Shown piece by piece: positions 409 through 36,904 of a DNA stretch of 36,904 nucleotides. Where the stretch lies: positions 682,001 through 718,904 of the forward strand of contig RSEE01000030.1 of the NCBI GenBank assembly GCA_003971905.1. The letters run 5' to 3'. The position numbers were made by a program, and so were the translations under genes. Origin of the DNA: Moniliella sp. 'wahieum' (Eukaryota). The notes beneath the pieces are model-generated. The model ran no database searches. It was not told the origin of the DNA and saw only the letters and a program-made list of their open reading frames with translations. The first letter of the stretch is position 1. Every line of letters starts with the position of its first letter.

Positions 409-415
409 TATATAA
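409..415 (+). promoter_or_regulatory. TATA box upstream of GCL-like gene
   Basis: TATATAA about 60 nt upstream of the ATG at 473, followed by a pyrimidine-rich leader. Confidence 0.55.
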
Positions 416-472
416 GTGCACCCTCGGCCCAACCCATCATTCGCCCTCACTCCACCTCATCGGTCGTCCACC

Positions 473-2538
473 ATGACCCCATCTACGCACGATCGTGTCC
501 CCCTTGGGTGGTCCGAAGTCCAGGCGTTGGGAGATATGGCGCGGGGCCGGGCTGTGTCGGAGCTGCTGGCCCATTGGCCTTGCTGGACCCAGCGGAGCGG
601 CGATCCACCGCTGTGGGGCGACGAGGTGGAGCAAATGGTGGTCCTTCTGGATGCTGACAGGCGAAGGGCCCCACTCAGTATGGCCCAGGACCGGGTATTG
701 ACAGCCCTCGCCACCCAATCCAACTCACCCACTGCCGGCATTGACTTTCCCAGTTTCCAACCCGAGTATGCCCGGTACATGATCGAGTCGTGCCCAGGTC
801 AACCTTACGACGCATCTCCTGCCGGCCTGTGCCAAGTGGAGGCCAGCATGCAAGGCCGCAGGAAGCTGATCCAATCCTGCCTGGGCCCCAGGGAGAAGAC
901 TATGACGCTCGCCACCTACCCTCTCCTGGGCATGTTGGGTTCTCACCGCGACGGCCAGCACGCGAACATGTCGCATTCGCTGGGCTGGAAGGCGCGTCTC
1001 TTTTTGGTCCTATTTTGGAGAGCTCTCTTCTTCCCGATGAGATTATCAGCCCCTTTCACCGCTACCGCACTTTGACGGCCAATGGACGCAAACTCAAGGG
1101 CAGCAAGCCCGCCATCCATATCCCGCTTTCAAGGACAAAAGGACGCGTGCCAGCTGGCGTCCCCATCCGGACGAAAACGGGACCATCCTGCATATGGGAG
1201 ACAGATTTACATGGACGCATTGCCCTTTGGCACAGGATGCTGTGGCCTGCAGGCAACCATCCAAGCTGAATCCCTCTCCCAAGCACGCCAGATCCACGAC
1301 CTCCTCGTCCCGCTTTCTCCCATTTTGCTCGCTCTCACAGCCGCGTCCCCCGCATTTAGGGGCGCTTTGGCCGATGTGGATTCCCATTGGATGGTATTGG
1401 CTCAGGCATTGGATGATCGTACCGAGGAGAACAACGGAACACACTTTTCTTCCAGTCTGATGGATGAAGGAGGCCGGGAGCGTCACTCAACGACACGGAG
1501 AAGAGCCGGTGGGACTTCCGAGTATGTACCTGGCTCTGCCTCCGCACTTGGCGGCCACCCCGGGTATGAGGATCCCCCGACGCTTCGCATTCACCAACGA
1601 TCGTATGAGACGTTGGTGCAAAATGGGATGGAGTCGGTTTTGGCACGTCACTTTGCCAGCATTTTCCACCACGATCCCCTGCTGTTGTACCCCCCGACGA
1701 CGAACCAAACGGAAGAAGGGGCACAGCAAGATGGCCCGACAGAGTATCTCGATCTCTTTCTAACTTCTATTTGGCCCGCCGTACGACTCAAGCCGCCCCT
1801 TTCGCATGATGGGCCCGGGTGGCGAGTGGAGATGCGGTCGATGGAAATCCAGCTGACGGATTTTGAAAACGCAGCGTTTACTACTTTTGCTGTGCTCCTC
1901 GTCCAGGCTCTGTTGGAGTTGGGGCTGTCGTTGCACATGCCTCTTTCGTCGTTGACTCCAACATGACCTGCGCTCAACAGCGCGGAGCCGGAAGCTCGAT
2001 GCGCTACTTGTTCTCGACCGGCTTTGCTCAAGCTTGGTGCACCTCCTTCGGACGACACGTCGAGTGATGGCCTTCGTTATTTAGCTTGCATGAGTTGATC
2101 AATGGTCAGGTATGTGATGTTGTGTTTGTTGCATCCTGTTTCCTTCGTTACTACCACATCTTTTGACCACAGACAACTGGGTTTCAAGGACTGGTCCCTA
2201 TGGTGCGCTCGTACCTCGCCCACCAACCAATGGAGGCGAGTCACGCGCGGCAACTGAATGAGTACTTGGACTTTATCAGCGACAGAGCCCGAGGGAAGTA
2301 TGTCACTCTGGCCTCGTATGTCCGCAACTACATCCTCCGCCACCCGGCTTACCGGTTGGACAGCCAGATCAGCCCCGAACTCGGATACGACTTGCTGGTG
2401 CACTTGGACCAGGTGGAGCAAGGTGTAGTCGCTGCTCCTACCCTACTGCCGCGCTCCTACGCCCCCCTCGTGCTCGCCCGGCACGCGGCGAGCGTGCCAA
2501 CGGTACAAGTAAAACAGGACTCGGATGCGAAGCTTTGA
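473..2538 (+). CDS. Glutamate-cysteine ligase catalytic subunit-like protein (GCS family), divergent; several probable sequencing frameshifts; one intron at 2110-2172
   Basis: Family motifs appear in the expected order across ORFs 416-1075, 790-1269, 1082-1966 and 2200-2538: PLGW, WGDEVE, FQPEYARYMIESCPGQPY, RTLTAN, IYMD..FG.GCC.LQ, ALTAASP.FRG.LADVD, LARHFA...DPL, W..VRLKPP, GWRVEMRSMEIQLTDFENAAF, then ELINGQ|TTGFQGLVPMVRSYL across the GTATGT..CAG intron, YLDFISDRARG, and RNYILRHPAY. Confidence 0.9.
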
Positions 2539-3107
2539 TCTAAGTGTACCCCTCTTATTGGACGGTGGTCTGTGTGGCCTTTTAGTGCCTCAGTCCTTAC
2601 CTCCCTACTTGTAATCCTCTTTTGTCTTCTATTTCTGTACTACCCCTAGATATTCTTTCGCCGTTTCCATGGCTGTATACGCTGTGCAGACGGCCCTCTT
2701 GACTGAGATGTGACTGTACTACTATTACTTTTTGTTACTACGTACCCCTATTCCTCCTACTACTATATTATTTCTCGGCGAGATGGAGTGAGTATCGGTT
2801 TCTAGAGTCCTGGCAGTGGATGAGAGGAGAGGTGGGGGCATCTGGTCGATGGGGATAGGGGTGCATAGCTGGTAGTAGGAGGCGACTACCTTGTTTCTGT
2901 GAGGCCAACGAAGCCCGAGGAAATGAGATCTCCCTTATATATACGGCGGGTGTGGTACAGGTGTCGTCTGAGTCATTCGAGTCACTCCAACCCGCGAGAC
3001 AAGGACTAATATATGCTACAGCAACAACACAGAGGCACATGGATCATTCGGGTCATTGACCAGATACGCGATTGCAATATTCGGGCAAAGCTGCGTGTTG
3101 CTCGTGC

Positions 3108-4472
3108 ATGTCCATATCGCCGCCACGTCCCACCACCACCGTAACCATCGCCTGCCAACCCTGCCTGCCCATCGCTCTTAGGGGGCATTGGCTTCCTACC
3201 GATGGATATCCTGATTCATCATCCCTTCCCCCATCCTCGCTTGTGCCGGACGTTGTGCTGGCCGCCTTTGGTCTCAGCCACCCGCCCGCCAATACCACCC
3301 GGACTGTCGTCCCGCTCAATGGCGGACAAGGCACGAGTGTGCTGCTCGATGGCACGACCGTACTGAAGCCCCTCGGCCAGCAAGACAACAAGGCGCTGGA
3401 TCAGGCCGAGTCGGAGCTGATTGCCCAGCTATGCGCAGCTATGGCCTCGCGCGCCGAGCAGAGCAACAACACCTATCGAGTTGTCCGGCCCATCGCTCGC
3501 GTCCGTCCCGTCAAAGGGGAGATGCAGTACGTTGCGCATGGATGGACTGCCACCACGTTCTCCCCCACCTCGACGGGGGATATCTATGACTTCTCGTCCC
3601 CCTTGGGTGCCCCATTGGACATGGAAGAGCAAGTACGAGGACGACTCACAGAGATCGTACAAGCCTCTCGGGCCTTCCATGCCGATGTCCACAATGGGTC
3701 GCATCCCACCCCCCCATTCCTTCCCCCGCTGGTGGTGCACCCGTTCCTTTCCCCCACCTCGCTCGCTTCATCTTTGATGCCCGCGAACATGTCTGGGCTC
3801 AACCGATCGGTTCATCTGGGGAGAGTACAATGCTCACTACAATCTCCTACCCCAGCACGAACAACAGCGACTCAAGACGAAAGGCATAGCTGCAGCCGAA
3901 GCCCCGCCTGGCGTTGGCATTGGCGTTGGCCGTGGATTACCAACAGACAGCCATAACCCCCATTTAGGTTTGGCTGCGTCGCCGCTGAAGCACTTCGGGT
4001 GCGGGTCGATTCCTCGCTTCAACCTGCCTATGACACATACTCGCTCCAGCGCCCGCTTGACCCTCGTTCGGTTGAGCAACGTTCTCAGCTCATTCATGGC
4101 GATTTGGCGGGAAACGTGTGTTTTCTTCAGGGTCAAGCCACGTCGCTCCAATCACCATGCCGCCTCGCCAACTAGGTGCTGACGTCTCGCCCTTATGGCG
4201 CCCGCGTGAAGCAGCTGAGGGCATACTTGCCGTGACTTTCTCGTGTACTTTGGCGCTGATGCATCCCACCTTTCTTCGGCGTTGAGCACCTCCTCCCCGA
4301 CCACCTGGATCCGTTTCAAGTCCAAATGATCATCAAGGGTCTCCTGTTTCGTTTGCTCTCCAATTCAGCCCTTCGACCCGATCCAGGACTGCATCAATAC
4401 TACACCCACGCTACCAACGTAGCTGCTTTCCTCCTGGGCAAAGCCGAGGCCTCCAATGGTAGCTCGAATTGA
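3108..4472 (+). CDS. Aminoglycoside-phosphotransferase-fold (APH) kinase resembling TIGR02569-type actinobacterial proteins; frameshifted; start uncertain
   Basis: N-terminal VPDVVLAAFGL...PLNGGQGTS....VLKP, YRVVRPI, YVAHGWTA and ASRAFHA. In later frames: catalytic-loop SQLIHGDLAGNV (HGD at 4095-4103), DVSPLWRP (4181-4204) and C-terminal QMIIKGLLFRL. Stop TGA at 4470-4472. Confidence 0.7.
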
Positions 4473-4930: not shown

Positions 4931-6203
4931 TTAGAGAGCTGTCCGGGAGAGCTTCTGGAGCTGGTTGAGGAGTACGTCACCATCCTTAATGATCTGGTTG
5001 TACTGTGCGTTTTTCGAATCGGGCCGACGCGTCTCGATGACGCCGTGCACCTTGTCAATTACTGCCGGTAGGCGACCCGACGAAATGAACCGCGACAGTT
5101 CCCTGTCGATAAACTCATCCGTGACCCCAAATGCATCTGCCATGGATCGCAGCGTGACAGACCGGTAGGACTCGAGAAGTTGCGCATACGCAATGATGCG
5201 CATCTCTCGCACGTAGTAGCGCGCATGGGCATTGAGCAGTCGTGAGGGAAGAAGATAAGTTTGCTTCTCGATCTGGGCCAACGCTTCAAAGAATGCCTTG
5301 TAGTTGCCATTGTACAGCGACTGAGTGTAGACCCTCAAATGCGGCAGCTCGTCAATCACCTGCAGCACCTCGGGCGCATTGAGAATCTTCTTCTTTAGCT
5401 CCGTCCGCGGCAAGGCGAGCATATTGGCAATCACTGCCAGTGATACAAACGAATGGTAATCCAGTAGTTCGGTTGCGGTAAACGTAGAGAGCGCCTCGAG
5501 AACAGCTCCCCACCTCGCTTAAAATCCCGAATAGAGAGGAGGTGGAGACCCTCGTATACCTTAAGCCGGTTGCGGCGGTCCCAGTCACCACCTTCCTCGA
5601 CCAACTTTTTCACCTCGGTAATTGATGATGTGACAAGGGAGGTGTTGCCAAAGAAGAAACCGATGCGGATGAGGCCGAGTGTCAAGTCGATCTTACTGCC
5701 TAACCCAGCACCCTTTTCGATCGCCTCCTTAGTAGCAGCGATCGCCTTGTCCTACGGAAAAAGAGGCGAAGTTAGCACAAGGCGGGGAGAAAAAGGAAAT
5801 GCACGCACTTGGTCCCCAATTTTGGCATAGTAGCTGGCTTTGTTCTTAAGCACTGCACTGATTTCCATCTCGCCCTCCTCCTCAGTAGCCTTGGTAAGCT
5901 GTTGGTCAAGCTTGGCGCTCCTCCTTGTTGCGCTCCTCAAGCCGGGCCAGAAGGTCTTGAGGTGTGGAGGCATGGTGGGTGCTGGTACTCCCAACAGGGG
6001 AGGGCAACTTCTTGCTGATGAGCGGGTCGGCAAGCAGGGCAGCGTAGTAAGGTGCCATCTCGTCGGCCTCAATGCAGCCAGCATCGCAGCAGCGGCGGCC
6101 GAAGGGGATGGTGTCGCCGCATACCCCCCGTGGACCACGGTAAAGAGGAGGTGCTGCCAGTGCAGGTTGGGGATGGTTGGATGCTCTCCTCGTCGGCAGA
6201 CAT
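4931..6203 (-). CDS. RPN7: 26S proteasome lid subunit Rpn7 (PSMD6); intron 5752-5808; frameshifts likely sequencing errors
   Basis: IEADEMAPYY, EEEGEMEI, YYAKIGDQ|DKA across a GTGCGT..GCTAAC..TAG intron, KIDL.L..IRIGFFF, VEEGGDWDRRNRLKVYEGLHLLSIRDF, RYYVREMRIIAYAQLLESYRSVTL.SMADAFGV, and IDKVHGVIETRRPDSKNAQY..IIKDGDVLLNQLQKLSR. Confidence 0.95.
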
Positions 6204-6451
6204 GGTGGTGGCGATGGGGCGCCGCCCATCGACTGGCATGCCCGCCATGCCATACCTCCGCTGGTCCGCAGCTAACACACGCGTCCTGGCCGCTGCCCCA
6301 GACCGCGCGGAATAGATGGCAGGCGGAACGGCAGGTACAGGCACCGCGCCAGTGTCGCACCCCGTGACGCGGCCACTCGTTAAGCGTACAACAGCTCGGC
6401 CAGAGCGCTCCTCGTGCGTTTCTTGCGGCCTAGGTCGTGATCCCCACCACC
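6204..6451. promoter_or_regulatory. Short bidirectional promoter shared by RPN7 and RPN6
   Basis: 248 nt separate the divergent start codons. Both ATGs are preceded by CCACCACC on their own strand, and CGTGACGCG lies at 6363-6371. Confidence 0.65.
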
Positions 6452-7810
6452 ATGGCAACGCCTACACCCACCGCTTCGCCCTCCGTCGCTGCCGCCGAGA
6501 CCGCGTTTGATGCTGGCGACCGTGCGGGCGGAGAGGCCCAGCTCAAGGCTGTGCTTGCCCAGCAGCCGCCCGCGGACAAGGCCGCTTCAGCCAAGGGTGA
6601 GGCCATCCTGCGCGAGCAGGAACTCGCTCTTCTTCGTCTCGGCCAGCTGTACCGCGACGAAGCCAACGTGGATGCCCTGGCAAGTGTCGTGCGCGACTCG
6701 CATGCTGTTCTTGCTCACTTGGCCAAGGCCAAGACGGCAAAGCTGATCCGCCAGCTGATTGACCTCTTTGGGGACGTACCGGGTGATGCAGCCCGCGCCG
6801 CCCAGATTCGCATTACCGAGGAGAATATTGAGTGGGCCAAGGAGGAAAAACGTATCTTCCTCAAACAAAGTCTTGAGACGAAGCTAATTGCCCTCTACTA
6901 TGAGGCGAAAAATTACCGCCAAGCCCTGCCCTGATAGAACAACTTCTCAAGGAACTCAAGAAGTTGGACGACAAGATGATCCTCACCGAGGTCCACCTGC
7001 TCGAATCCAAGGTAAACTTTGCGATTGCCAATTTGCCCAAGGCCAAGACAGCCTTACTTCTGCCCGTACCTCCGCCAACGCCATGTACACCCCGCCTTTG
7101 CTCCAGGCTCAACTGGACTTGCAGAGTGGTGTGCTACACGCCAAAGACAAGGATTACTCCACCGCTTACTCGTACTTTTTCGAAACGCTGGAGGGCTTCT
7201 CTGGTCAGGAGGATCCACGCGCAGGATTGGCACTCAAGTACATGTTGCTGTGTAAAATCATGCTCAACCTGCCGGAGGATGTGGCAGCAATTATTCAAGG
7301 CAAGACGGCGCTTGTGGCCGAATCCAAAGCGGCCAAGGGCTAAGGCATGGGGCGCCAAAGGCGCGCGGTAGAAAAGGCTACGGAGCGGGACGTGGAGGCC
7401 ATGTCTGCTGTTGCCAAGGCGCATGAAGAACGGTCATTGGAGGCATTCGAAAAGGCATTGAAGGACTACCAAACTGAATTGTCCAACGACCCCATTATTC
7501 GCAACCACTTGGCTGAGCTGTACGACACCTTGCTGGAACAAAACTTGCTGCGCGTGATTGAGCCTTACTCGCGAGTCGAGATTGCGTATGTGGCACAACG
7601 GGTGCGCCAACCCGAGCGGGAAGTGGAGCAAAAACTGTCGCAGATGATCCTGGACAAGACCTTCCATGGAATCTTGGACCAAGGCAATGGGTGTCTGGTT
7701 GTCTTCGATGAGCCTCCACAGGACAAGATGTACGAGGCTGCGTTGCAGACTATCAAGCACGTGGTGACGTGGTCGACTCGTTGGCTAAAAAGGCTAACAA
7801 GTTGGGGTGA
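6452..7810 (+). CDS. RPN6: 26S proteasome lid subunit Rpn6 (PSMD11); frameshifts likely sequencing errors
   Basis: [167 protein letters not shown]. Ends [13 protein letters not shown] then TGA at 7808-7810. Confidence 0.95.
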
Positions 7811-14478: not shown

Positions 14479-16111
14479 ATGAAGTTTACCTTCTCCCTGT
14501 CCCTGGTAGGGGCAGCAGCGATCTTGGCGACCTTGACGGGCAACGGCGTTGAGGCTGCCTCGAACCGCCATGGGCTGTCTCGTCAACACCGTCAGCTCTT
14601 CTCTCGGGACTTCCCCCCTCCCTTCAAGACCCGTTCTACTGCACCCCACAACTTGTCCAAGTACAGCCTGGTGAGGTGATCGAGATGCGCAAAATTACGC
14701 CTGGCATGAAAGGTCTTTACAATGTGGGAGAAAGTTACCAGATCCACTTCCGTACAACCAATGCTGAGGGCCATGCTTCTTCGTCTGTCACCACTGTCAT
14801 CCAGCCGGTCTACGGCGGTAAGCAGAAGATGCTTTCCTACCACTTGTGGGAAGATGCGACCCAACGCAACTGCGCACCTTCGTACACCGTTTTGGAGGGC
14901 GCCAATGCTCCCAACGTGATGGTTGTTGGTACGTGTGACTTGCTTACTACTGGTGATGAACCGAGAACGCTCAATGGGCTACAACTGACTTGAATCAATA
15001 AAACAGGTGAGGATGTGCCCATCTGGTTTAACTTTTTGCTTATGAACGGGATCAGCGTGGTGGTTCCTGATTACGAGGGGCCTAAGTCCGCACTCTTCGC
15101 TGGTTTCACTGCCGGCTACATCATTCTCGACTCGGCGCGCGCTGTCCGGAACGCTCTCCAGTGGGGCGATGACGCGGAAGTTGCCATGACTGGATACTCT
15201 GAGGGTGCGCATGTAACTGCTTGGGCTGCCAACCTGTCGCCCAGTTATGCACCGGACCTCAACATTGTTGGTGTGACTCATGGTGGCACCCCCATCGACA
15301 TGGAGCTCACCCTCAAGCACTTTGACGGTACCTCTTTCTCCGGATTCACCATTGGTGGTATCCACGGTATGAACGTGGCCTACAAGTCCTTCAAGGAGGC
15401 GATCGAACAGTACGGTGGTGACGAGATCCGTTCCGACTTGAAGATTATCACCAAGCCGCCTACTTGCCACTCCGTCCTCCGTGGTCCTGACTTTGCCGGC
15501 AAGTCCTACTTGAGCATGATTAAACCCCCTGGCAACATCAGTGTCTTCGACTGGGAGCCGTTCCGCTACGTCCTGGACCGCGAGACGCTCTGGAACAACA
15601 AGTCCTCCGTCGGAGTCGGTTACCCCAAGTTCCCTCGCATGATCTACCAGGGATCGCACGACGATGTAATCAGCTACGCTGCTGTCGACGCCTACGTCAA
15701 GCAACAGTGTGCCCACGGTGCCGACATTCAGTTTAATGTGTACACAGCCTACGCCCACACCGCTCCCGAAGTTGTCATTGGCGGCGACCTCAACGCAATG
15801 CGCTTTGTCCTGGAGGTCTTTAACCTGAACGGTCATACCCTTCTCAAGCTTCCGTGCGGCGAGCCCACGCCCTCTCTCCTCAACATCGGTACCTGGACGG
15901 TGGATACCATTTGGGCCCCAACATTACTGACTCGTTCCAGCAACTGTTTGACCAGGTTGGCTCCTTTGCAACATTGGTTTCGGTCCCCATGTCAACAAGA
16001 CCAACCGTGTTTAAGTGCATTTTCTCTCTGGCGGTTCCAGCGCGGCAGGCCCGCTTGAAAGTTATGATTCGCCAGTTTTTGCTGCATATGGACATGGCCT
16101 GTAACTCCTAG
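14479..16111 (+). CDS. Secreted lipase, LIP family (Candida antarctica lipase A-like); intron 14929-15006; 3' end uncertain
   Basis: Signal peptide MKFTFSLSLVGAAAILATLTGNGVEA; DPFY after a frameshift; SYQIHFRTTN; LSYHLWEDA..NCAPSY; a GTACGT..CTGAC..CAG intron joining VVG|EDVPIW; VVVPDYEGPKS; nucleophile elbow GYSEG; YAPDLNIVG..HGGTP; PKFPRMIY...HDDVI; CAHGADIQF...AH. Confidence 0.9.
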
Positions 16112-19391: not shown

Positions 19392-22300
19392 ATGGGCATC
19401 ATCTCCCGCATTTGGCACCGCGCCACCGCCAGCCAATCGTCCGGCCCCGCCCCGTCCGAGGCCGCCGCCCCGACCGACGCCCTACCTGCGTCTGTCACCA
19501 ACGCCCGCACCCCCACCGTCCGAGTCCGCATACGAAGAAGCCCGCACTGGCTCGTCCGATGTGCCCTCCGACCCCCCGCCGCTGCTTCGATCCGTACCAA
19601 TCCGTCGCGTCGAGCGTGCGCGGCCAGGACGGGCCGAACCAGTCAGGTTCTGAAGCAGCCGCAGAACCGACGGGAAAGAAACGTGGCCATGCAGCCACGA
19701 GCAGCATCAGTCGTCTGATGCACCGTGCTTTGGCTCCGTCCAAGGCCAAGGAAACCACCCTCACTTCGGCGGCGGCTGTCGTGCCGGAGGACACAGAACA
19801 GGCTCACTCGTCGGAAGACAGTCCGATCAAACGTCATGAGAGTGCACACGACGACCTTGCCCGCCTCTTGGCCCAGTACGTACCTTCTTCCCTACCCCCT
19901 GTCCCGGGAGACGATGACAAACGAATTAACGTTGAACACCCCTGGTGCAGAGACCATGCGCACCCGTCCACCTCGACCGAGGCCGAGGCAGCAGAACCTG
20001 ATCCGGCCAACTCGGAAACCAACAACGAACAAAACGAAGAGGAAGCCAAGCCGCTCGAGGCTGTGCCCTCCCAGCCAACCCAAGGAGTAGAGCCGACGAA
20101 GGAGCCTACCCCCGTTGAACCCGAGATTAAGATGGCGGCCCCCGCCGAGACTACCACCGAGGAGCCTACCCCGGCGAGCCCACCACCGAGGAGCCTACCC
20201 CGGCTGAGCCTGCAGCCGAAAAGCCCAGCCCCGCTGAGACCACGGTCGTGGAGCCCACTCCCGCCGAGCCTGCCGCTGAGGACCCGCCGGTGTCGAGCCG
20301 CTGAGGAGGCGCCGGTTACTGCCTTGGAGCCCACTGCCGCCGAGCCAGCTGCCGAAGAGGAGCCTACCCCCGCTGAGCTTGCCGCCAAGGAGCCCACTCC
20401 CGCTGACCTGGCCTGAGGTGAAGGAGGCCGCCCACTGAGCCTGAGGTGAAGGAGGCCGCTCCCGCCGAGCCCGCGGTTGAGGAACCCACTCCGCTGAGCC
20501 TGCCGCCGAGGAGCCTACTCCCGCTGAGCCCACGGTTGAGGAACCCATTCCGGCTGCCCCTGTCGCCGAGGAGCCCACTCCGGCTGAGCCTGGGTGAAGG
20601 AGGCCGCTCCCGCTGAGCCTGAGTGTAAGGAGGCCGCTCCACTGAGCCTGAGGTGAAGGAGGCCTCTCCGCCGAGCCCGCGGTTGAGGAACCCACTCCCG
20701 CTGAGCCTGCCGCCGAGGGCCTACTCCCCTGAGCCTGCCGTGAGGACCCGACTCCCGCTGAGCCCACGGTTGAGGAACCACTCCGGCTGCCCTGTCGCCG
20801 AGGACCCAATCCCGCTGAGCCTGAGGTGATGAAGGAGGCCGCTCCGCTGAGCCTGCCGCCGAGGAGCCTATTCCCGCTGAGCCCACGGTTGAGGAACCCA
20901 CTCCTGCTGGCCTGTCGCCGAGGAGCCCACTCCGCTGAGCCTGAGGTGAAGGGAGGGCCGCTCCCGCTGAGCCTGAGGTGAAGGAGGCCGCCTCCCGCTG
21001 AGCCTGCCGCCGAGCCGGGTGCCTCCTCCCGCTGAGCCCACGGTTGAGGAAACCACTCCTGCTGAGCCTGCCGCTGAGGGGAGCCCACTCCCGCTGAGCC
21101 TGAGGTGAAGGAGGCTGCTCCGCCGAGCCCGCTGTGAGGAACCCTCCCGCTGAGCCTGCCGCCGAGGAGCCTACTCCGCTGAGCCCACGTTGAGGAACCC
21201 ATTCCAGCTGCCCCTGTGGCCGAGGCGCCCACTCGGCTGAGCCTGAGGTGAAGGAGGCCGCTCCCGCTGAGCCTGAGGTGAAGGAGGCCGCTCCCGCTGA
21301 GCCTGCCGCCGAGGAGCCTACTCCCGCTGAGCCTGCCGCTGAGGACCCGACTCCCGCTGAGCCCACGGTTGAGGAACCCACTCCGGCTGCCCCTGTCGCG
21401 AGGAGCCCAATCCCGCTGAGCCTGAGGTGAAGGAGGCCGCTCCCGCTGAGCCTGCCGCCGAGGAGCCTATTCCCGCTGAGCCCACGGTTGAGGAACCCAC
21501 TCCTGCTGGGCCTGTCGCCGAGGAGCCCACTCCCGCTGAGCCTGAGGTGAAGGAGGCCGCTCCCGCTGAGCCTGCCGCCGAGGTGCCTCCTCCCGCTGAG
21601 CCCACGGTTGAGGAAACCACTCCTGCTGAGCCTGCCGCTGAGGAGCCCACTCCCGCTGAGCCTGAGGTGAAGGAGGCTGCTCCCGCCGAGCCCGCTGTTG
21701 AGGAACCCACTCCCGCTGAGCCTGCCGCCGAGGAGCCTACTCCCGCTGAGCCCACGGTTGAGGAACCCATTCCAGCTGCCCCTGTGGCCGAGGCGCCCAC
21801 TCCGGCTGAGCCTGAGGTGAAGGAGGCCGCTCCCGCTGAGCCTGAGGTGAAGGAGGCCGCTCCCGCTGAGCCTGCCGCCGAGGTGCCTCCTCCCGCTGAG
21901 CCCACGGTTGAGGAACCCACTCCTGCTGCCCCTGTCGCCGAGGAGCCCACTCCCGCTGAGCCTGAGGTGAAGGAGGCCGCTCCCACTGAGCCTGAGGTGA
22001 AGGAGGCTGCTCCCCGAGCCCGCGGTTGAGGAACCCACTCCCGCTGAGCCTGCCGCCGAGGAGCCTACTCCCGCTGAGCCCACGGTTGAGGAACGCACTC
22101 CTGCTGCCCCTGTCGCCGAGGAGCCCACTCCCGCTGAGCCTGAGGTGAAGGAGGCTGCTCCCGCTGAGCCTGAGGTGAAGGAGGCCGCTCCCACTGAGCC
22201 TGAGGTGAAGGAGGCCTCTCCCGCCGAGCCCGCGGTTGAGGAACCCACTCCCGCTGAGCCTGCCGCCGAGGAGCCTACTCCCGCTGAGCCTGCCGCTGAG

Positions 22301-25300
22301 GACCCGACTCCCGCTGAGCCCACGGTTGAGGAACCCACTCCGGCTGCCCCTGTCGCCGAGGAGCCCACTCCCCTGAGCCTGAGGTGAAGGAGGCCGCTCC
22401 CGCTGAGCCTGCCGCCGAGGTGCCTCCTCCCGCTGAGCCCACGGTTGAGGAAACACTCCTGCTGAGCCTGCCGCTGAGGAGCCCACTCCGCTGAGCCTGA
22501 GGTGAAGGAGGCTGCTCCCGCCGAGCCCGCTGTTGAGGAACCCACTCCCGCTGAGCCTGCCGCCGAGGAGCCTACTCCCGCTGAGCCCACGGTTGAGGAA
22601 CCCATTCCAGCTGCCCCTGTGGCCGAGGCGCCCACTCCGGCTGAGCCTGAGGTGAAGGAGGCCGCTCCCACTGAGCCTGAGGTGAAGGAGGCCTCTCCCG
22701 CCGAGCCCGCGGTTGAGGAACCCACTCCCGCTGAGCCTGCCGCCGAGGAGCCTACTCCCGCTGAGCCTGCCGCTGAGGACCCGACTCCCGCTGAGCCCAC
22801 GGTTGAGGAACCCACTCCGGCTGCCCCTGTCGCCGAGGAGCCCACTCCCCCTGAGCCTGAGGTGAAGGAGGCCGCTCCCGCTGAGCCTGAGGTGAAGGAG
22901 GCCGCTCCCGCTGAGCCTGCCGCCGAGGTGCCTCCTCCCGCTGAGCCCACGGTTGAGGAAACCACTCCTGCTGAGCCTGCCGCTGAGGAGCCCACTCCCG
23001 CTGAGCCTGAGGTGACGGAGGCCTCTCCCGCCGAGCCCGCGGTTGAGGAACCCACTCGCGCTGAACCTGCCGCCGAGGAGCCTACTCCCGCTGAGCCTGC
23101 GCTGAGGACCGACTCCCGCTGAGCCCACGGTTGAGGAACCCACTCCGGCTGCCCCTGTCGCCGAGGAGCCCAATCCCGCTGAGCCTGAGGTGAAGGAGGC
23201 CGCTCCCGCTGAGCTGCCGCCGAGGAGCCTATTCCCGCTGAGCCCACGGTTGAGGAACCCACTCCTGCTGGGCCTGTCGCCGAGGAGCCCACTCCCGCTG
23301 AGCCTGAGGTGAAGGAGGCCGCTCCCGCTGAGCCTGAGGTGAAGGAGGCTGCTCCCGCCGAGCCCGCTGTTGAGGAACCCACTCCGCTGAGCCTGCCGCC
23401 GAGGAGCCTACTCCGCTGAGCCCACGGTTGAGGAACCCATTCCGGCTGCCCCTGTGGCCGAGGCGCCCACTCCGGCTGAGCCTGAGGTGAAGGAGGCCGC
23501 TCCGCTGAGCCTGAGGTGAAGGAGGCCGCTCCCGGAGCCTGCCGCTGAGGAGCGCTTCCGTCGCGCCGACCGTGGAGGAGCCGGTTGCTGCTGTGGAGCC
23601 CCTGCTGCCGAGCCTGCCGCTGAGGAGCCCACTCCCGAACCTGAGGTGAAGGAGGCCGCTCCCGCTGAGCCTGAGGTGAAGGAGGCCGCTCCCGCTGAGC
23701 CTGAGGTGAAGGAGGCCGCTCCCGCTGAGCCTGCCGCCGAGGAGCCTACTACCGCTGAGCCTGCCGCCGAGGAGCCTACTCCCGCTGAGCCCACGGTTGA
23801 GGAACCCACTCCGGCTGCCCCTGTCGCCGAGGAGCCCACTCCCGCTGAGCCTGCCGCCGAGGAGCCTACTCCCGCTGAGCCTGCCGCCGAGGAGCCTATT
23901 CCCGCTGAGCCCACGGTTGAGGAACCCACTCCTGCTGGGCCTGTCGCCGAGGAGCCCACTCCCGCTGAGCCTGAGGTGAAGGAGGCCGCTCCCGCTGAGC
24001 CTGAGGTGAAGGAGGCCGCTCCCGCTGAGCCTGTGGTGAAGGAGGCCGCTCCCGCTGAGCCTGAGGTGAAGGTGGCCGTTCCCGCCGAGCCTGTCGCGAG
24101 GAGCCCGCTTCCGTCGCGCCCGACCGTGGAGGAGCCGGTTGCTGCTGTGGAGCCCCCTGCTGCCGCGCCTGCCGCTGAGGAGCCCACTCCCGCTGAACCT
24201 GAGGTGAAGGAGGCCGCTCCCGCTGAGCCTGAGGTGAAGGAGGCCGCTCCCGCTGAGCCTGCCGCCGAGGAGCCTACTCCCGCTGAGCCTGCCGCCGAGG
24301 AGCCTACTCCCGCTGAGCCTGCCGCCGAGGAGCCTATTCCCGCTGAGCCCACGGTTGAGGAACCCACTCCTGCTGGGCCTGTCGCCGAGGAGCCCACTCC
24401 CGCTGAGCCTGAGGTGAAGGAGGCCGCTCCGCTGAGCCTGAGGTGAAGGAGGCCGCTCCCGCTGAGCCTGTGGTGAAGGAGGCCGCTCCCGCTGAGCCTG
24501 AGGTGAAGGTGGCCGTTCCCGCCGAGCCTGTCGCCGAGGAGCCCGCTTCCGTCGCGCCGACCGTGGAGGAGCCGGTTGCTGCTGTGGAGCCCCCTGCTGC
24601 CGCGCCTGCCGCTGAGGAGCCCACTCCCGCTGAACCTGAGGTGAAGGAGGCCGCTCCCGCTGAGCCTGAGGTGAAGGAGGCCGCTCCGCTGAGCCTGCCG
24701 CCGAGGAGCCTACTCCCGCTGAGCCTGCCGCCGAGGAGCCTACTCCCGCTGAGCCTGCCGCCGAGGAGCCTACTCCCGCTGAGCCTGCCGCCGAGGAGCC
24801 TACTCCCGCTGAGCCCGCGGTTGAGGAACCCACTCCTGCTGGGCCTGTCGCCGAGGAGCCCTCCCGCTGAACCTGAGGTGAAGGAGGCCGCTCCCGCTGA
24901 GCCTGAGGTGACGGAGGCCGCTCCCTGCGCCTGCCGCCGAGGAGCCTACTCCCGCTGAGCCTGCCGCCGAGGAGCCTACTCTCGCTGAGCCTGCCGCCGA
25001 GGAGCCTATTCCCGCTGAGCCCGGTTGAGGAACCCACTCCTGCTGGGCCTGTCGCCGAGGAGCCCACTCCCGCTGAGCCTGAGGTGAAGGAGGCCGCTCC
25101 CGCTGAGCCTGAGGTGAAGGAGGCCGCTCCCGCTGAGCCTGTGGTGAAGGAGGCCGCTCCGCTGAGCCTGAGGTGAAGGTGGCCGTTCCCGCCGAGCCTG
25201 TCGCGAGGAGCCCGCTTCCGTCGCGCCGACCGTGGAGGAGCCGGTTGCTGCTGTGGAGCCCCCTGCTGCCGCGCCTGCCGCTGAGGAGCCCACTCCCGCT

Positions 25301-25646
25301 GAACCTGAGGTGAAGGAGGCCGCTCCCGCTGAGCCTGAGGTGAAGGAGGCCGCCCGCTGAGCCTGCCGCCGAGGAGCCTACTCCCGCTGAGCCTGCCGCC
25401 GAGGAGCCTACTCCGCTGAGCCTGCCGCCGAGGAGCCCACTCCCGCTGAACCTGAGGTGAAGGAGGCGGCTCCCACTGATCCTGCCGCGAGGAGCCGACT
25501 CCGCTGAGCCCACGTTGAGGAAACCCACTCCTGTTGTGCCTGTCGCCGCGGCGCCCGCTGCCGCTGAGCCCGAGGTCCTGGAGACGGCCCCCGCCAGTGG
25601 TGCGGTTGACGCCTCGGAGCCCGAGCCCACTGCCCCCCATCATTAG
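19392..25646 (+). CDS. Very large Pro/Glu/Ala-rich low-complexity repeat protein (about 2,000 aa if frameshifts are errors), no signal peptide
   Basis: ATG at 19392 (MGIISRIWHR) follows a CT-rich leader and leads into a unique N-terminal region. Decapeptide repeats (AEPEVKEAAP, AEPAAEEPTP, AEPTVEEPTP, AAPVAEEPTP) are read in ORFs 21427-22029, 22502-23122 and 23646-24446. Unique tail EPEVLETAPASGAVDASEPEPTAPHH, stop TAG at 25644-25646. Confidence 0.7.
20090..25560 (+). repeat. Coding minisatellite, 30-bp unit, roughly 180 copies, with higher-order structure
   Basis: Units such as GCTGAGCCTGAGGTGAAGGAGGCCGCTCCC, GCTGAGCCTGCCGCCGAGGAGCCTACTCCC and GCTGAGCCCACGGTTGAGGAACCCACTCCT repeat in tandem over about 5.5 kb. 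Confidence 0.95.
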
Positions 25647-25856
25647 ATGAGTGCATGGGTGTTATGCATGGCCATGGAGCCGCTGGACAAGCTACCGTTT
25701 GCTCTGATTTACTTCCCCCACCCCCCATGCCTGAATGTTGAACGCTAAGCCTAGGCTTCCGCCTTTGCTACGACCATCCCCCCTACGCCCTGATCTCTGT
25801 CCTAGAGACGGTGGATCTACTTCCCCCTTCCCCTTTCTCCTTCTGATACCTATCAC

Positions 25857-32929: not shown

Positions 32930-33410
32930 GGGTGGGCGGATGGATGCGCGGCACGCGGAGTGGAGCCGAGGGCGGCGGCGGCATTCTGCGGGCGTGGCGG
33001 CTGCCGGGTGCGGTTGCATCGGCGACGGCGCTGGCGGCGCGGTGCACGGCGGCGCGGAGCATGGGCAGGAGGGCAGGGGGAGGCGGTGGCGGCGGCGGCG
33101 GAGGAGGCAGGAGATGGGGCGTGTGGGGGTGGGGTTGGTTGGGTTGGTTGGGCCGATCGTATGCTCGGCGCTCGGCGCTCGGGCATGTGCCTGGCAAGTT
33201 TCAACTCGATCGCAGATCTGCCTGTCGCTCGTTATGTTCGGTTGAATCGCATCCCCGCTGCCTTTCATGGCCGCGCATCGCCACGTGCCTGCGGCCGCAG
33301 CACCGCTCGTCCCGCCCTTGTGCGCCCCATCCGCGCCTCTGTCCGACAGCTATGGTTGGCAGTCGTAGAGCATTCAATATTCAATGCTGAATATCATCAA
33401 CAACATCATC

Positions 33411-35068
<1,658 letters not shown>

Positions 35069-36904
35069 TTCAGATAGGTGGACGGGCGGGGGGAGGGGTT
35101 GGCTAGTGGGGAAAACACAAAAAATTGTCCTTGCGCTTGCTTGATTTTTGGGCATTGCGATCTCTGGGCCCTGGATTTGGTGGCCATGCATTATGCATTA
35201 CGTCACCGCCACCCATGTCACCTCCCGATGTCACATGTGTGTCACAGGTGATGTCACCGGCCAGAAACAGGGTCTCCGTCGGCCGTGAAAAAAATAAATA
35301 GCACGTCGCTCTCTCCATATATGTCTGTCCATCGCATACACGTATTCCCGTCGGCATGGGGTCCTCCCCGTATGAAGTCATCATGGGGTGACAAAGAGAG
35401 GCAATGCTGTGACTGATCCAAGGCGGACACCGGCCGAGGAAGATAGGCCGACCATTCGTACCCGAGCACAGTGCAGAGCCCCGTGCACGCTACAACCCCT
35501 CCCCCGCCCCCCTTCACACAAACACACACCTCCAGACCCCGCGTGACGCGTGGATCCGACGAAGCTGCAACGAGCTCAGTGGAAAGCTGGGAACGACAAT
35601 TAGGAACAAAGATGGCTTGGTGTGGAAACCGCCTTATATGCTTGACCTAGATCGTGGAGGATGGGAGCCTCTCGCTGAAAGGCTGTGGTCTTGGTAGCGT
35701 ACAGCACTGCTAGTAGATTGAAGCTATTTATTGGCAAATCCATCCCTGACGATTGTGACGGTTCTTTCTGTTCCTTCCGTTCCCAGAATCTTATACGACT
35801 ATAGAGCAAATGGGAGTCGATGTGTGCTCACGGAAACATAGTGCGTAGAAACGTTTTTCCTGTGAGCAATACATAGGAAGTGCATGAAGCCCGCTCAAGC
35901 AAAGGGAGATAGAACAACTATTAGACAGCTAAGACGGGAAACACATGTCCATCTGCATCACTATCAAATCAAGGACAGAGCCTGAACCAGAATTTAGGGG
36001 TGAAGCCCTTGGAGGTGTGGAATCAGATAGTTACACACGGTATGTGCGCGGCTTTTCATATCCTAATAGTTGATCCGAGCGCAAGTAGAGGCAAGGGATA
36101 GACTCTTAGTTGGGTGTCTGCCTGCATTCAAAGACCATTGCAGCTCAGTCCTCCGAAGTAGGAGCAGTGGACGTAGGTTGTAAGACCCTCCGTTGAAGAG
36201 GTCCAACTACTCCAGGGAAACGTGGGTCACTGGTCGTTACCACTCTCGACACGCTGTAGTATGAGGAACCAAACGGTGCTCTAATGAGACGAGCAAGCTC
36301 TATTTATTTAAGTAAACTGAGGTTTACAGAGTGATGCATGCGTCGCAAATTCTTATTCTTAGCGTAAGGTGAAGGAATCAAGGGTGAAGACTAAAGGTGA
36401 CAAAAGGGAAGGGAGGACGGAAGAGTTCAGCGGGTGAGGATCACCGCCAGCAATCCTCAGCAGAAGGGTTGTTTAAATACCGTATACTGGCAGAACAAGG
36501 CTAATAACAAGAAGAAAGGGGTCTACAGTAGTCTGGAAGACACGTGTGGCCTGTTCTGTCATATCAAGACCGCGGTCCGGTGGGCCGCAACAGAAAAAGT
36601 TCAGCCAAGATTGAGCGAGCAGTTACAAAGCTTCGTACTGCTACTTCCGCTATTGGCTCTCCGCGGAAAGTATCAGCGGCATGTGTTGTAAGTTGCCCAT
36701 GCTGACTCTCGCTCACTATGGTAGTCTCGTGGAGTCGCTCAACTCTGGCCTCCTTGCTTTCGCCATATCGGATATCTCGCCTGCAATCCCTTTGGCTGGA
36801 CCCAATCTCGACGTATCTTCTCTTTTTTCTCTTTGTTTCCTCGCTGCTTGTGGTCAATGCCCCTCTTCTGTCCACAATATGAAAGTTGATTATGAATTGA
36901 TGGC

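Follow-up and report, generated by a model that had tools for sequence, protein, structure and literature searches.

A divergent member of the glutamate-cysteine ligase family with changed substrate-lining motifs in Moniliella

Which acid and which amine does a ligase join when the catalytic core of glutamate-cysteine ligase (GCL) is kept and the motifs lining its substrate pocket have changed? This question is raised by a gene in a stretch of 36,904 nucleotides from Moniliella sp. 'wahieum' (assembly GCA_003971905.1, contig RSEE01000030.1, forward strand, positions 682,001 to 718,904), which we call the window at its full length and in whose coordinates all positions are given (Table 1). A sequence-only reading had described the gene as a GCL-like ligase that retains metal and ATP chemistry, has lost the pocket for the glutamate alpha-carboxylate and is a candidate new carboxylate-amine ligase. 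In this study, we compare the gene with its relatives and its neighbours. The reading that we favour, at a probability of about 0.5, is that of a divergent, probably intact and probably active GCL-family ligase that is a paralogue with a new preference for the acid and/or the amine.

Family membership and the substrate pocket

Profile and structure-based alignments identify the locus as a member of the eukaryote-type GCL family. The Pfam family GCS (PF03074; curated cut-off 25 bits) matches the open reading frame (ORF) at 1076-1966, which measures 296 aa between stops and 294 aa when counted from the ATG at 1082, with E 1.5e-67 and 228.9 bits (profile positions 1-235 of 372), and it matches the ORF at 2167-2538 with E 4.6e-21 and 76 bits (profile positions 293-371), each piece scoring above the cut-off on its own. 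Among the relatives, only Gsh1 of S. cerevisiae has solved structures (3ig5, 3ig8, 3lvv and 3lvw), and 3ig5 aligns with the N-terminal piece at 473-943 (E 3.4e-17, residues 8-131) as well as with the central piece (E 1.2e-34, residues 252-501). The likeness in fold extends over the whole length, taking in WGDEVE, PEY..MIE, the central domain and the C-terminal helix region with YL..ISDRA.G. Identity to any canonical GCL is about 40%, and the window protein differs from them in M258L, G259P, M262T, C266G, Y362W, Q446P and F471M, in the replacement of HFENIQSTN and in its AKL end. A comparison with the ESM Atlas again returned the GCS family and nothing further. All motifs listed by the sequence-only reading were recovered, with positions that agree exactly or to within a few bases.

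The closest relative is P0001, a protein of 855 aa from a 15.5-kb Logan contig that scores 367.4 bits against Pfam GCS and is 50-55% identical to the window protein over all parts. Residues 1-855 are all covered by the locus in tblastn and frameshift-aware alignments, the start of the gene corresponding to M1 of P0001 and its end to the AKL of that protein. The two share an identical MDALPFGTGCCGLQATIQA, SRW, the pattern xLDxFLTxxWP, loss of the Phe of WRVEFR (A/M) and the AKL end, and an intron-like insert occupies a corresponding position in both, whereas P0001 keeps DARW and LLRDP, has long extra loops (~157-204 and ~255-315) and is encoded in one open frame. After P0001, identity among the matches listed is at most 43% for proteins of 519-2000 aa (best 120 of 220; 8000 candidates scored). 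Proteins of 162-518 aa reach at most 42% (36 matches at E<=1e-20) and include no further member of the lineage. Among 1.84 billion cluster representatives the best match has 41%, the nearest being GCLs of Cyanophora, Puccinia, a chytrid, a stramenopile, a red alga and a mite. Patterns from both proteins found LPFGTGCC in 0 of 16 loci of JGI metagenome contigs, all of which carry the canonical MDAM.FG.GCCCLQ. The matches listed, which were clustered at 50%, contain no named canonical GCL of Ustilaginomycotina, a result with no bearing on whether one exists. By these comparisons, the gene is part of a very small, fast-evolving lineage consisting of itself and P0001.

What the two proteins have in common can be read from a 276-row alignment, in which 103 columns have at least 90% agreement among 256 reference GCLs. 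Both proteins keep 76 of these columns and both have changed 12; a further nine differ in the window protein but not in P0001, and six in P0001 but not in the window protein. The shared changes (H to F; I to G/T; M262T; C266G; Y362W; H to Y/F; F to L; E to D; Q to L; S to T; N444 to I/T; F471 to M/A) bear out the earlier observation that substrate-lining motifs are altered. Seven of the 12 lead to the same residue in both proteins, so that they became fixed in a common ancestor of the window gene and P0001 and have persisted in both lines. The earlier argument that the changes are not decay thus holds for those that are fixed and conserved in P0001; R313H and the Arg-to-His change in IRDP occur in the window and not in P0001.

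Yeast numbering is taken from alignments to 3ig5, and residue roles follow the table of contacts in the yeast structures given in PMC5613772. In the 3ig5 alignment D49, E50, E52, E96, E103, Q268, W445, K451, R468, E470 and R472 are kept, and the family alignment likewise places the metal-ligand glutamates (E50, E52, E96, E103 and E470) together with Q268, K451 and R472. Table 3 of PMC5613772 assigns E50 and E52 roles in the metal/ATP site. The catalytic core is intact, as had been claimed, since none of the residues aligned to the metal, ATP and acyl-phosphate sites has been replaced.

The surroundings of this core have changed on both sides of the pocket. At the glutamate-site positions M262, R313, Y362 and C266 the window protein has T, H, W and G and P0001 has T, R, W and G, so that neither carries the canonical set. 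Among the 274 other GCLs, Met is found at M262 in 233, Cys at C266 in 250, Arg at R313 in 271, Tyr at Y362 in 243 and Asn at N444 in 253; the Arg of IRDP is Arg in 261 and His in six. R313H occurs in one of 276 rows, the window alone, and depends on a single base of an error-prone assembly. At the cysteine site E96 and W445 are kept, and both the window protein and P0001 have substitutions at eight of the nine motif positions that flank them. The contacts tabulated in PMC5613772 (Table 3) include a bond between the Y362 hydroxyl and the glutamate carboxylate and a contact of W445 with the cysteine carboxylate, and the same paper lists Met322 of Leishmania donovani Gcs, the equivalent of M262, among the glutamate-pocket residues. 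The changed HFENIQSTNWQ motif flanks the cysteine contact W445, and the changes therefore reach the amine site no less than the acid site. At the level of aligned residues, the lineage shows a remodelled pocket that touches both subsites and is most conspicuous beside W445.

A more specific claim had been that the pocket for the glutamate alpha-carboxylate, as formed by DxRW, KSRY and CxC, is lost and that a different acid is activated. His at R313, Trp at Y362, the residue whose hydroxyl is bonded in yeast, and Gly at C266 speak for such a loss, which we nevertheless consider improbable. The L. donovani enzyme, characterised as active, carries Asn where the yeast enzyme has C264 and Ala where it has C266 (PMC5613772), and C266G therefore need not abolish glutamate use. 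Furthermore, P0001 keeps R313 and the Arg of KSRY (R361), and the RRRA of the window is best read as KSRW. What is left of the claimed loss is R313H, itself unverified.

The evidence on RRRA comes from inside the 294-aa ORF, which had been called uninterrupted. Its length is indeed open as described, but very likely three compensating one-base deletions lie within it at ~1468-1534. In that reading frame 1 supplies EKSRW, frame 3 supplies (G)LPSMYL and frame 2 resumes with (G)SASALGG; the joined EKSRW.LPSMYL.S resembles HQSRWGTCTTYLGS of P0001 (also quoted as QSRWGTCTTYLGS) and the family consensus PKSRY....Y[IL], and G runs (CGGTGGGAC and CCTGGC) mark the second and third switches. A hidden Markov model (HMM) of the family, built from 274 other members, gives the ORF as assembled 279.6 bits, compared with 288.6-289.6 bits for the ORF with the excursion, X being placed at all three joints. 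In a control of 2818 three-shift excursions over 1184-1948 (at least 235 start positions and 12 length combinations), 69 brought any gain, with a maximum of +13.3 and a median of -27 bits, and every gain above 1.5 bits came from starts at 1480-1507, where the rescue of KSRW is worth 10 to 13.3 bits. Two-shift excursions (n=2913) yielded no gain of 5 bits or more and small gains (up to 2.7) at 1480-1498. Neither scan found a frame-based rescue for DSHW, SIFHHDP, LDLFLTSIW or LPFGTGCCG. The G+C content of third codon positions, 0.60-0.73 in the coding frame, is too weak a frame indicator in this gene and mildly favours frame 1 at 1486-1515. With the HMM preferring KSRW, which matches P0001 and the consensus, the replacement of KSRY by RRRA is not upheld, and we regard RRRA with good confidence as a frameshift artefact.

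Frame breaks in the gene and its neighbours

Is a gene with so many frame changes intact in the organism? Frameshift-aware alignment to P0001 places one-base deletions at ~981, 1130, 1204, 1950 and 2076 and one insertion at ~2017. At least six frame corrections are thus needed relative to P0001, five of the six shifts being one-base deletions, which contradicts the earlier statement that indel-type error could not produce the pattern. The neighbouring genes RPN6 and RPN7 are interrupted in the same way. Aligned to the Logan protein P0122 (88-97% identity per segment), RPN6 runs through frames 2, 1, 3 and 2, with switches at ~6931, 7047 and 7763 and no residue lost. One extra C or G restores the frame at 6931 (CCC, 6929-6931) and 7763 (GTGGT for GTGGGT, 7751-7755), and a single base is missing at 7047, where placement in a run is ambiguous. 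Similarly, the RPN7 pieces at 5434-5751 and 4934-5518, which lie in different frames of overlapping DNA on the minus strand, correspond to residues 109-191 and 191-375 of human PSMD6 and abut at residue 191; the break lies at ~5498-5500, with probably another near 5910-5930.

The density of shifts in the GCL-like gene, six in ~2 kb, is of the same order as that in RPN6, three in 1.4 kb. In two essential single-copy genes, such breaks are far more likely to be assembly errors than biology. Because RPN6 and RPN7 carry the same one-base breaks, we read those of the GCL-like gene as assembly errors, most likely deletions in homopolymers, and not as pseudogenisation; judged from these sequence comparisons, they are very probably artefacts of a gene that is intact in the organism.

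The opposite view, that the gene is a pseudogene whose frame shifts and TGA are real and whose R313H and other window-only changes are decay, appears highly improbable. It can point to the assembled sequence, with its six or more breaks and the TGA at 2065-2067, to the uniqueness of R313H and to a small excess of changes at columns conserved to at least 95%, where the window alone differs at six and P0001 alone at one. At the 90% threshold, on the other hand, nine window-only and six P0001-only changes make no clear excess, none of the catalytic residues is lost, and the start codon, intron borders and terminal AKL are intact. A unitary pseudogene would carry disabling mutations specific to itself, and here the essential RPN6 and RPN7 are broken likewise. 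One-base deletions in this assembly break essential genes and may also hide inside an open frame, so that motif substitutions need confirmation at the level of reads.

Divergent fungal copies, the C-terminus and competing readings

If the gene is intact, how unusual is it within its family? The window protein departs from the consensus at 21 of 103 conserved columns and P0001 at 18 of 104, compared with 0-5 departures in six named canonical-motif GCLs from fungi, a tardigrade and Cyanophora (Naematelia 0, Puccinia 0, Pleurotus 1, Colletotrichum 1, Cyanophora 1, tardigrade 5). Six named divergent fungal GCS proteins have 13-26 departures (Aspergillus niger An08g01270 18, A. brunneoviolaceus 17, A. 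bertholletiae 26, Patellaria 22, Cladophialophora 20, Dacryopinax 13). Vezdaea acicularis has both kinds, a canonical P0055 (1 of 127 departures) and a divergent P0379/P0417 (17 of 117). Divergent GCS proteins are also present in Cryptococcus amylolentus, Tulasnella sp. and Punctularia strigosozonata (P0289, P0414 and P0373; 15-21 departures per 127 columns), where they nest within Basidiomycota, the Tulasnella protein ending in ARL. Fungi may have evolved divergent GCL copies on several occasions.

The divergent ascomycete copies, GCS-domain proteins of Pezizomycetes (A. niger An08g01270, Coniosporium, Patellaria, Coleophoma, Cladophialophora and others), are annotated only as 'glutamate--cysteine ligase'. 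They resemble the window protein in their 13-26 departures, in the variation of the same four motifs and in keeping the catalytic residues, and four of them carry the combination G266, W362 and P446. They differ from it in an identity of 33-38%, in nesting inside Pezizomycotina while the window lineage falls with basidiomycetes (in the site-heterogeneous tree described below), and in their C-termini, no end like a peroxisomal targeting signal type 1 (PTS1) being found in the listed full-length copies; the 391-aa fragment P0441 ends in SKL. The combination occurs in six of 276 rows (the window protein, P0001, Coleophoma, Coniosporium, Patellaria and Cladophialophora), whereas each of its states taken singly occurs in 9-11 of the 274 other rows. 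Common descent would explain the shared signature, and so would convergence on the same pocket. That all six proteins would form an uncharacterised subfamily of fungal GCL-derived ligases, acting on glutamate or another acid and a non-cysteine amine, with the basidiomycete members in peroxisomes, is a tentative idea that we think rather unlikely.

Phylogenetic analyses place the lineage in different ways. In a FastTree phylogeny (275 rows, 587 columns) the window protein and P0001 (1.0) stand next to Dacryopinax in a 17-tip group of divergent fungal proteins (0.946). A site-heterogeneous IQ-TREE analysis with posterior mean site frequencies (PMSF) covered 624 columns and 40 rows picked for having names, leaving out 236 rows. 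It again joins the two proteins (100, stem 1.18) and groups them with Dacryopinax (90) in an unresolved Dikarya node, while the divergent ascomycete copies fall within Pezizomycotina and all basidiomycete rows, the window included, lie on one side of a branch with support 60.8. Forcing the window protein and P0001 together with the ascomycete divergent clade gave a log-likelihood 0.78 higher and was not rejected (p-AU, from the approximately unbiased test, 0.52). The tree run warned that the composition of both proteins is unusual.

The C-terminus provides a further feature shared by the lineage. The PTS1 consensus is [SAC][KRH][LM], and the GCL family is otherwise cytosolic. Both the window protein (...KQDSDAKL) and P0001 (...GPSEAKL) end in a tripeptide that fits the consensus, preceded by poorly conserved tails. 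Among 333 database proteins of the GCL family, only four end in this way, namely P0001, two Tulasnella proteins (ARL) and the 391-aa fragment close to the Aspergillus-type copies (SKL). The conserved AKL may indicate peroxisomal targeting, and we treat it as a lead for such a prediction and nothing beyond.

Could the gene simply be the GSH1 orthologue, a fast-evolving sole GCL of the organism that still makes gamma-glutamylcysteine? We regard this as possible but doubtful. It would agree with the retention of the catalytic residues and of E52, E96, W445 and R472, joined in P0001 by R313 and the KSRY Arg, with the activity of L. donovani Gcs despite Ala at the C266 position (PMC5613772), and with the grouping of the lineage with Basidiomycota in the best PMSF tree. 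The 36.9-kb window contains no second GCS match, and the neighbours are housekeeping genes with no biosynthetic cluster among them. Against a sole GCL stand the 21 and 18 departures where the six named canonical-motif GCLs have 0-5, the stem branch of 1.18 and the rarity of the PTS1-like end. A further point against it is an identity of only ~40% to other GCLs when the C-terminal piece of RPN6 is 74-80% identical to its counterparts in Tilletiaria, Thecaphora, Violaceomyces and other named Ustilaginomycotina.

Several observations weigh against the favoured reading. Acidic residues before AKL (DSDAKL, PSEAKL) are unfavourable for PTS1 function. Departure counts over the 276 rows are continuous and not bimodal, so that a high count alone is no proof of a second copy. 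The trees disagree on the position of the lineage, as the grouping with ascomycete copies in FastTree was not reproduced by IQ-TREE. Three errors within ~60 bases, as supposed for the KSRW region, are many for the average error rate here. The explanation by assembly error also leans on the neighbouring genes: of four contigs aligned from one sequencing run (the one run listed, with a 0.07 share of words and no RNA run beside it) none crosses a frame break, one of 212 nt being identical to 2192-2403 and three matching only ~35 bases of the WRVE motif. Finally, most of the glutamate and cysteine contacts tabulated in PMC5613772 are kept (E52, E96, R472 and W445, with R313 in P0001), and by its residues the enzyme may still make gamma-Glu-Cys.

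Surroundings of the gene and implications

The features of the gene and its neighbours are collected in Table 1. Directly downstream of the GCL-like gene, a gene at 3180-4180 (plus strand) reads ...VVPLNGGQGTSVLLDGTTVLKP..., then a stop, then ...LIHGDLAGNV..., which we take to resemble a phosphotransferase of the aminoglycoside or choline kinase type; the ORFs at 3060-4285 gave no Pfam match up to E 1, perhaps through frame errors. The C-terminal piece of RPN6 is 84% identical to P0122, and its likeness to named Ustilaginomycotina places the window in a basidiomycete within or close to that subphylum. Its top-scoring match, oddly, is P0121, a 566-aa protein filed under Camellia sinensis (58%, E 1e-80), which ranks above the 84%-identical fungal proteins. 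At 7314-7371 RPN6 has a stop-containing stretch that is absent from the Tilletiaria and Thecaphora proteins and read through in P0122, an intron or an insert. The secretory lipase ORF is intact, so that visible breakage does not affect every gene of the window. Between 19000 and 26000 the G+C content is 65-72% and very long overlapping ORFs lie mainly on the minus strand (20515-23745, 1076 aa; 23229-25661, 810 aa); they have no Pfam match and may be parts of a single large gene of low complexity that a frame error has divided.

Table 1. Features of the GCL-like gene and its neighbours, in window coordinates
Feature	Position	Strand	Description and basis
TATA-like element TATATAAG	409..416	+	candidate, read from the sequence; 57 bases 5' of the start codon
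GCL-like (Pfam GCS) gene	473..2538	+	ATG 473 to TGA 2536-2538; assembled frames 2/1/3/2/1; Pfam GCS and P0001 alignments
WGDEVE	614..631	+	yeast W47-E52, with D49, E50 and E52 (metal and ATP site); 3ig5 alignment
PEYARYMIE	761..787	+	yeast P95-E103, with E96 and E103; 3ig5 alignment and conservation
Frame break 2 to 1	975..985	+	one base missing; GGG run 979-981
Frame break 1 to 3	1126..1130	+	within CTTTC (IPL / FKDKRT)
Frame break 3 to 2	1173..1204	+	variable loop, exact place not fixed
MDALPFGTGCCGLQ	1211..1252	+	canonical MDAM[AG]FGMGCCCLQ; M258L, G/A259P, M262T and C266G, all also in P0001
DSHW	1379..1390	+	Arg of DxRW (yeast R313) to His; window only, no alternative-frame rescue
Probable hidden triple frame excursion (2 to 1 to 3 to 2)	1468..1534	+	EKSRW in frame 1 at 1498-1512; as assembled RRRA 1496-1507
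SIFHHDP	1658..1678	+	canonical HLFIRDP; P0001 QILLRDP; Arg to His in the window, not in P0001
YLDLFLTSIWPAVRLKPP	1745..1798	+	canonical HFENIQSTNWQTVRFKPP; W445 and K451 kept; flanks changed, as in P0001
GWRVEMR	1817..1837	+	R468, E470 and R472 kept; F471 to Met (Ala in P0001)
Frame break 2 to 1	1946..1950	+	MPLS / VDSNM
Variable loop	2014..2076	+	either in-frame TGA 2065-2067 or a shift pair (+1 near 2017, -1 near 2076)
Intron, 63 nt	2110..2172	+	GTATGT...CAG, from the sequence; unmatched read-through stretch at the same place in P0001
Ala-Lys-Leu and TGA	2527..2538	+	PTS1-like tripeptide (AKL 2527-2535); P0001 ends alike
RPN7	~4934-6271	-	26S proteasome lid subunit; head to head with RPN6
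RPN6	6452-7810	+	26S proteasome lid subunit
Secretory lipase ORF	14994-16058	+	uninterrupted, 354 aa; Pfam LIP E 2.4e-43
Protein kinase fragments	33406-35197	-	two ORFs, weak (E 2.8e-05 and 8.9e-04); probably a single kinase gene interrupted by an intron or frame error

In the favoured reading, that of a divergent and intact GCL-family ligase, the enzyme would still use ATP and Mg to convert a carboxylate to an acyl phosphate and would join the acid to an amine. With both the glutamate subsite (M262, Y362 and C266) and the residues around W445 remodelled, it would depart from glutamate and cysteine in the acid and/or the amine that it prefers, the amine being the likelier of the two, and its site of action could be the peroxisome. 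Full-text searches, with most subscription journals outside their coverage, found nothing on the function of fungal eukaryote-type GCL paralogues (including An08g01270) or on a peroxisomal GCL. If the reading is true, a eukaryote-type GCL would have been turned to the synthesis of an amide, gamma-glutamyl or related, that is not the glutathione precursor, a role of which we found no description in print, and possible targeting to peroxisomes would add to its interest.

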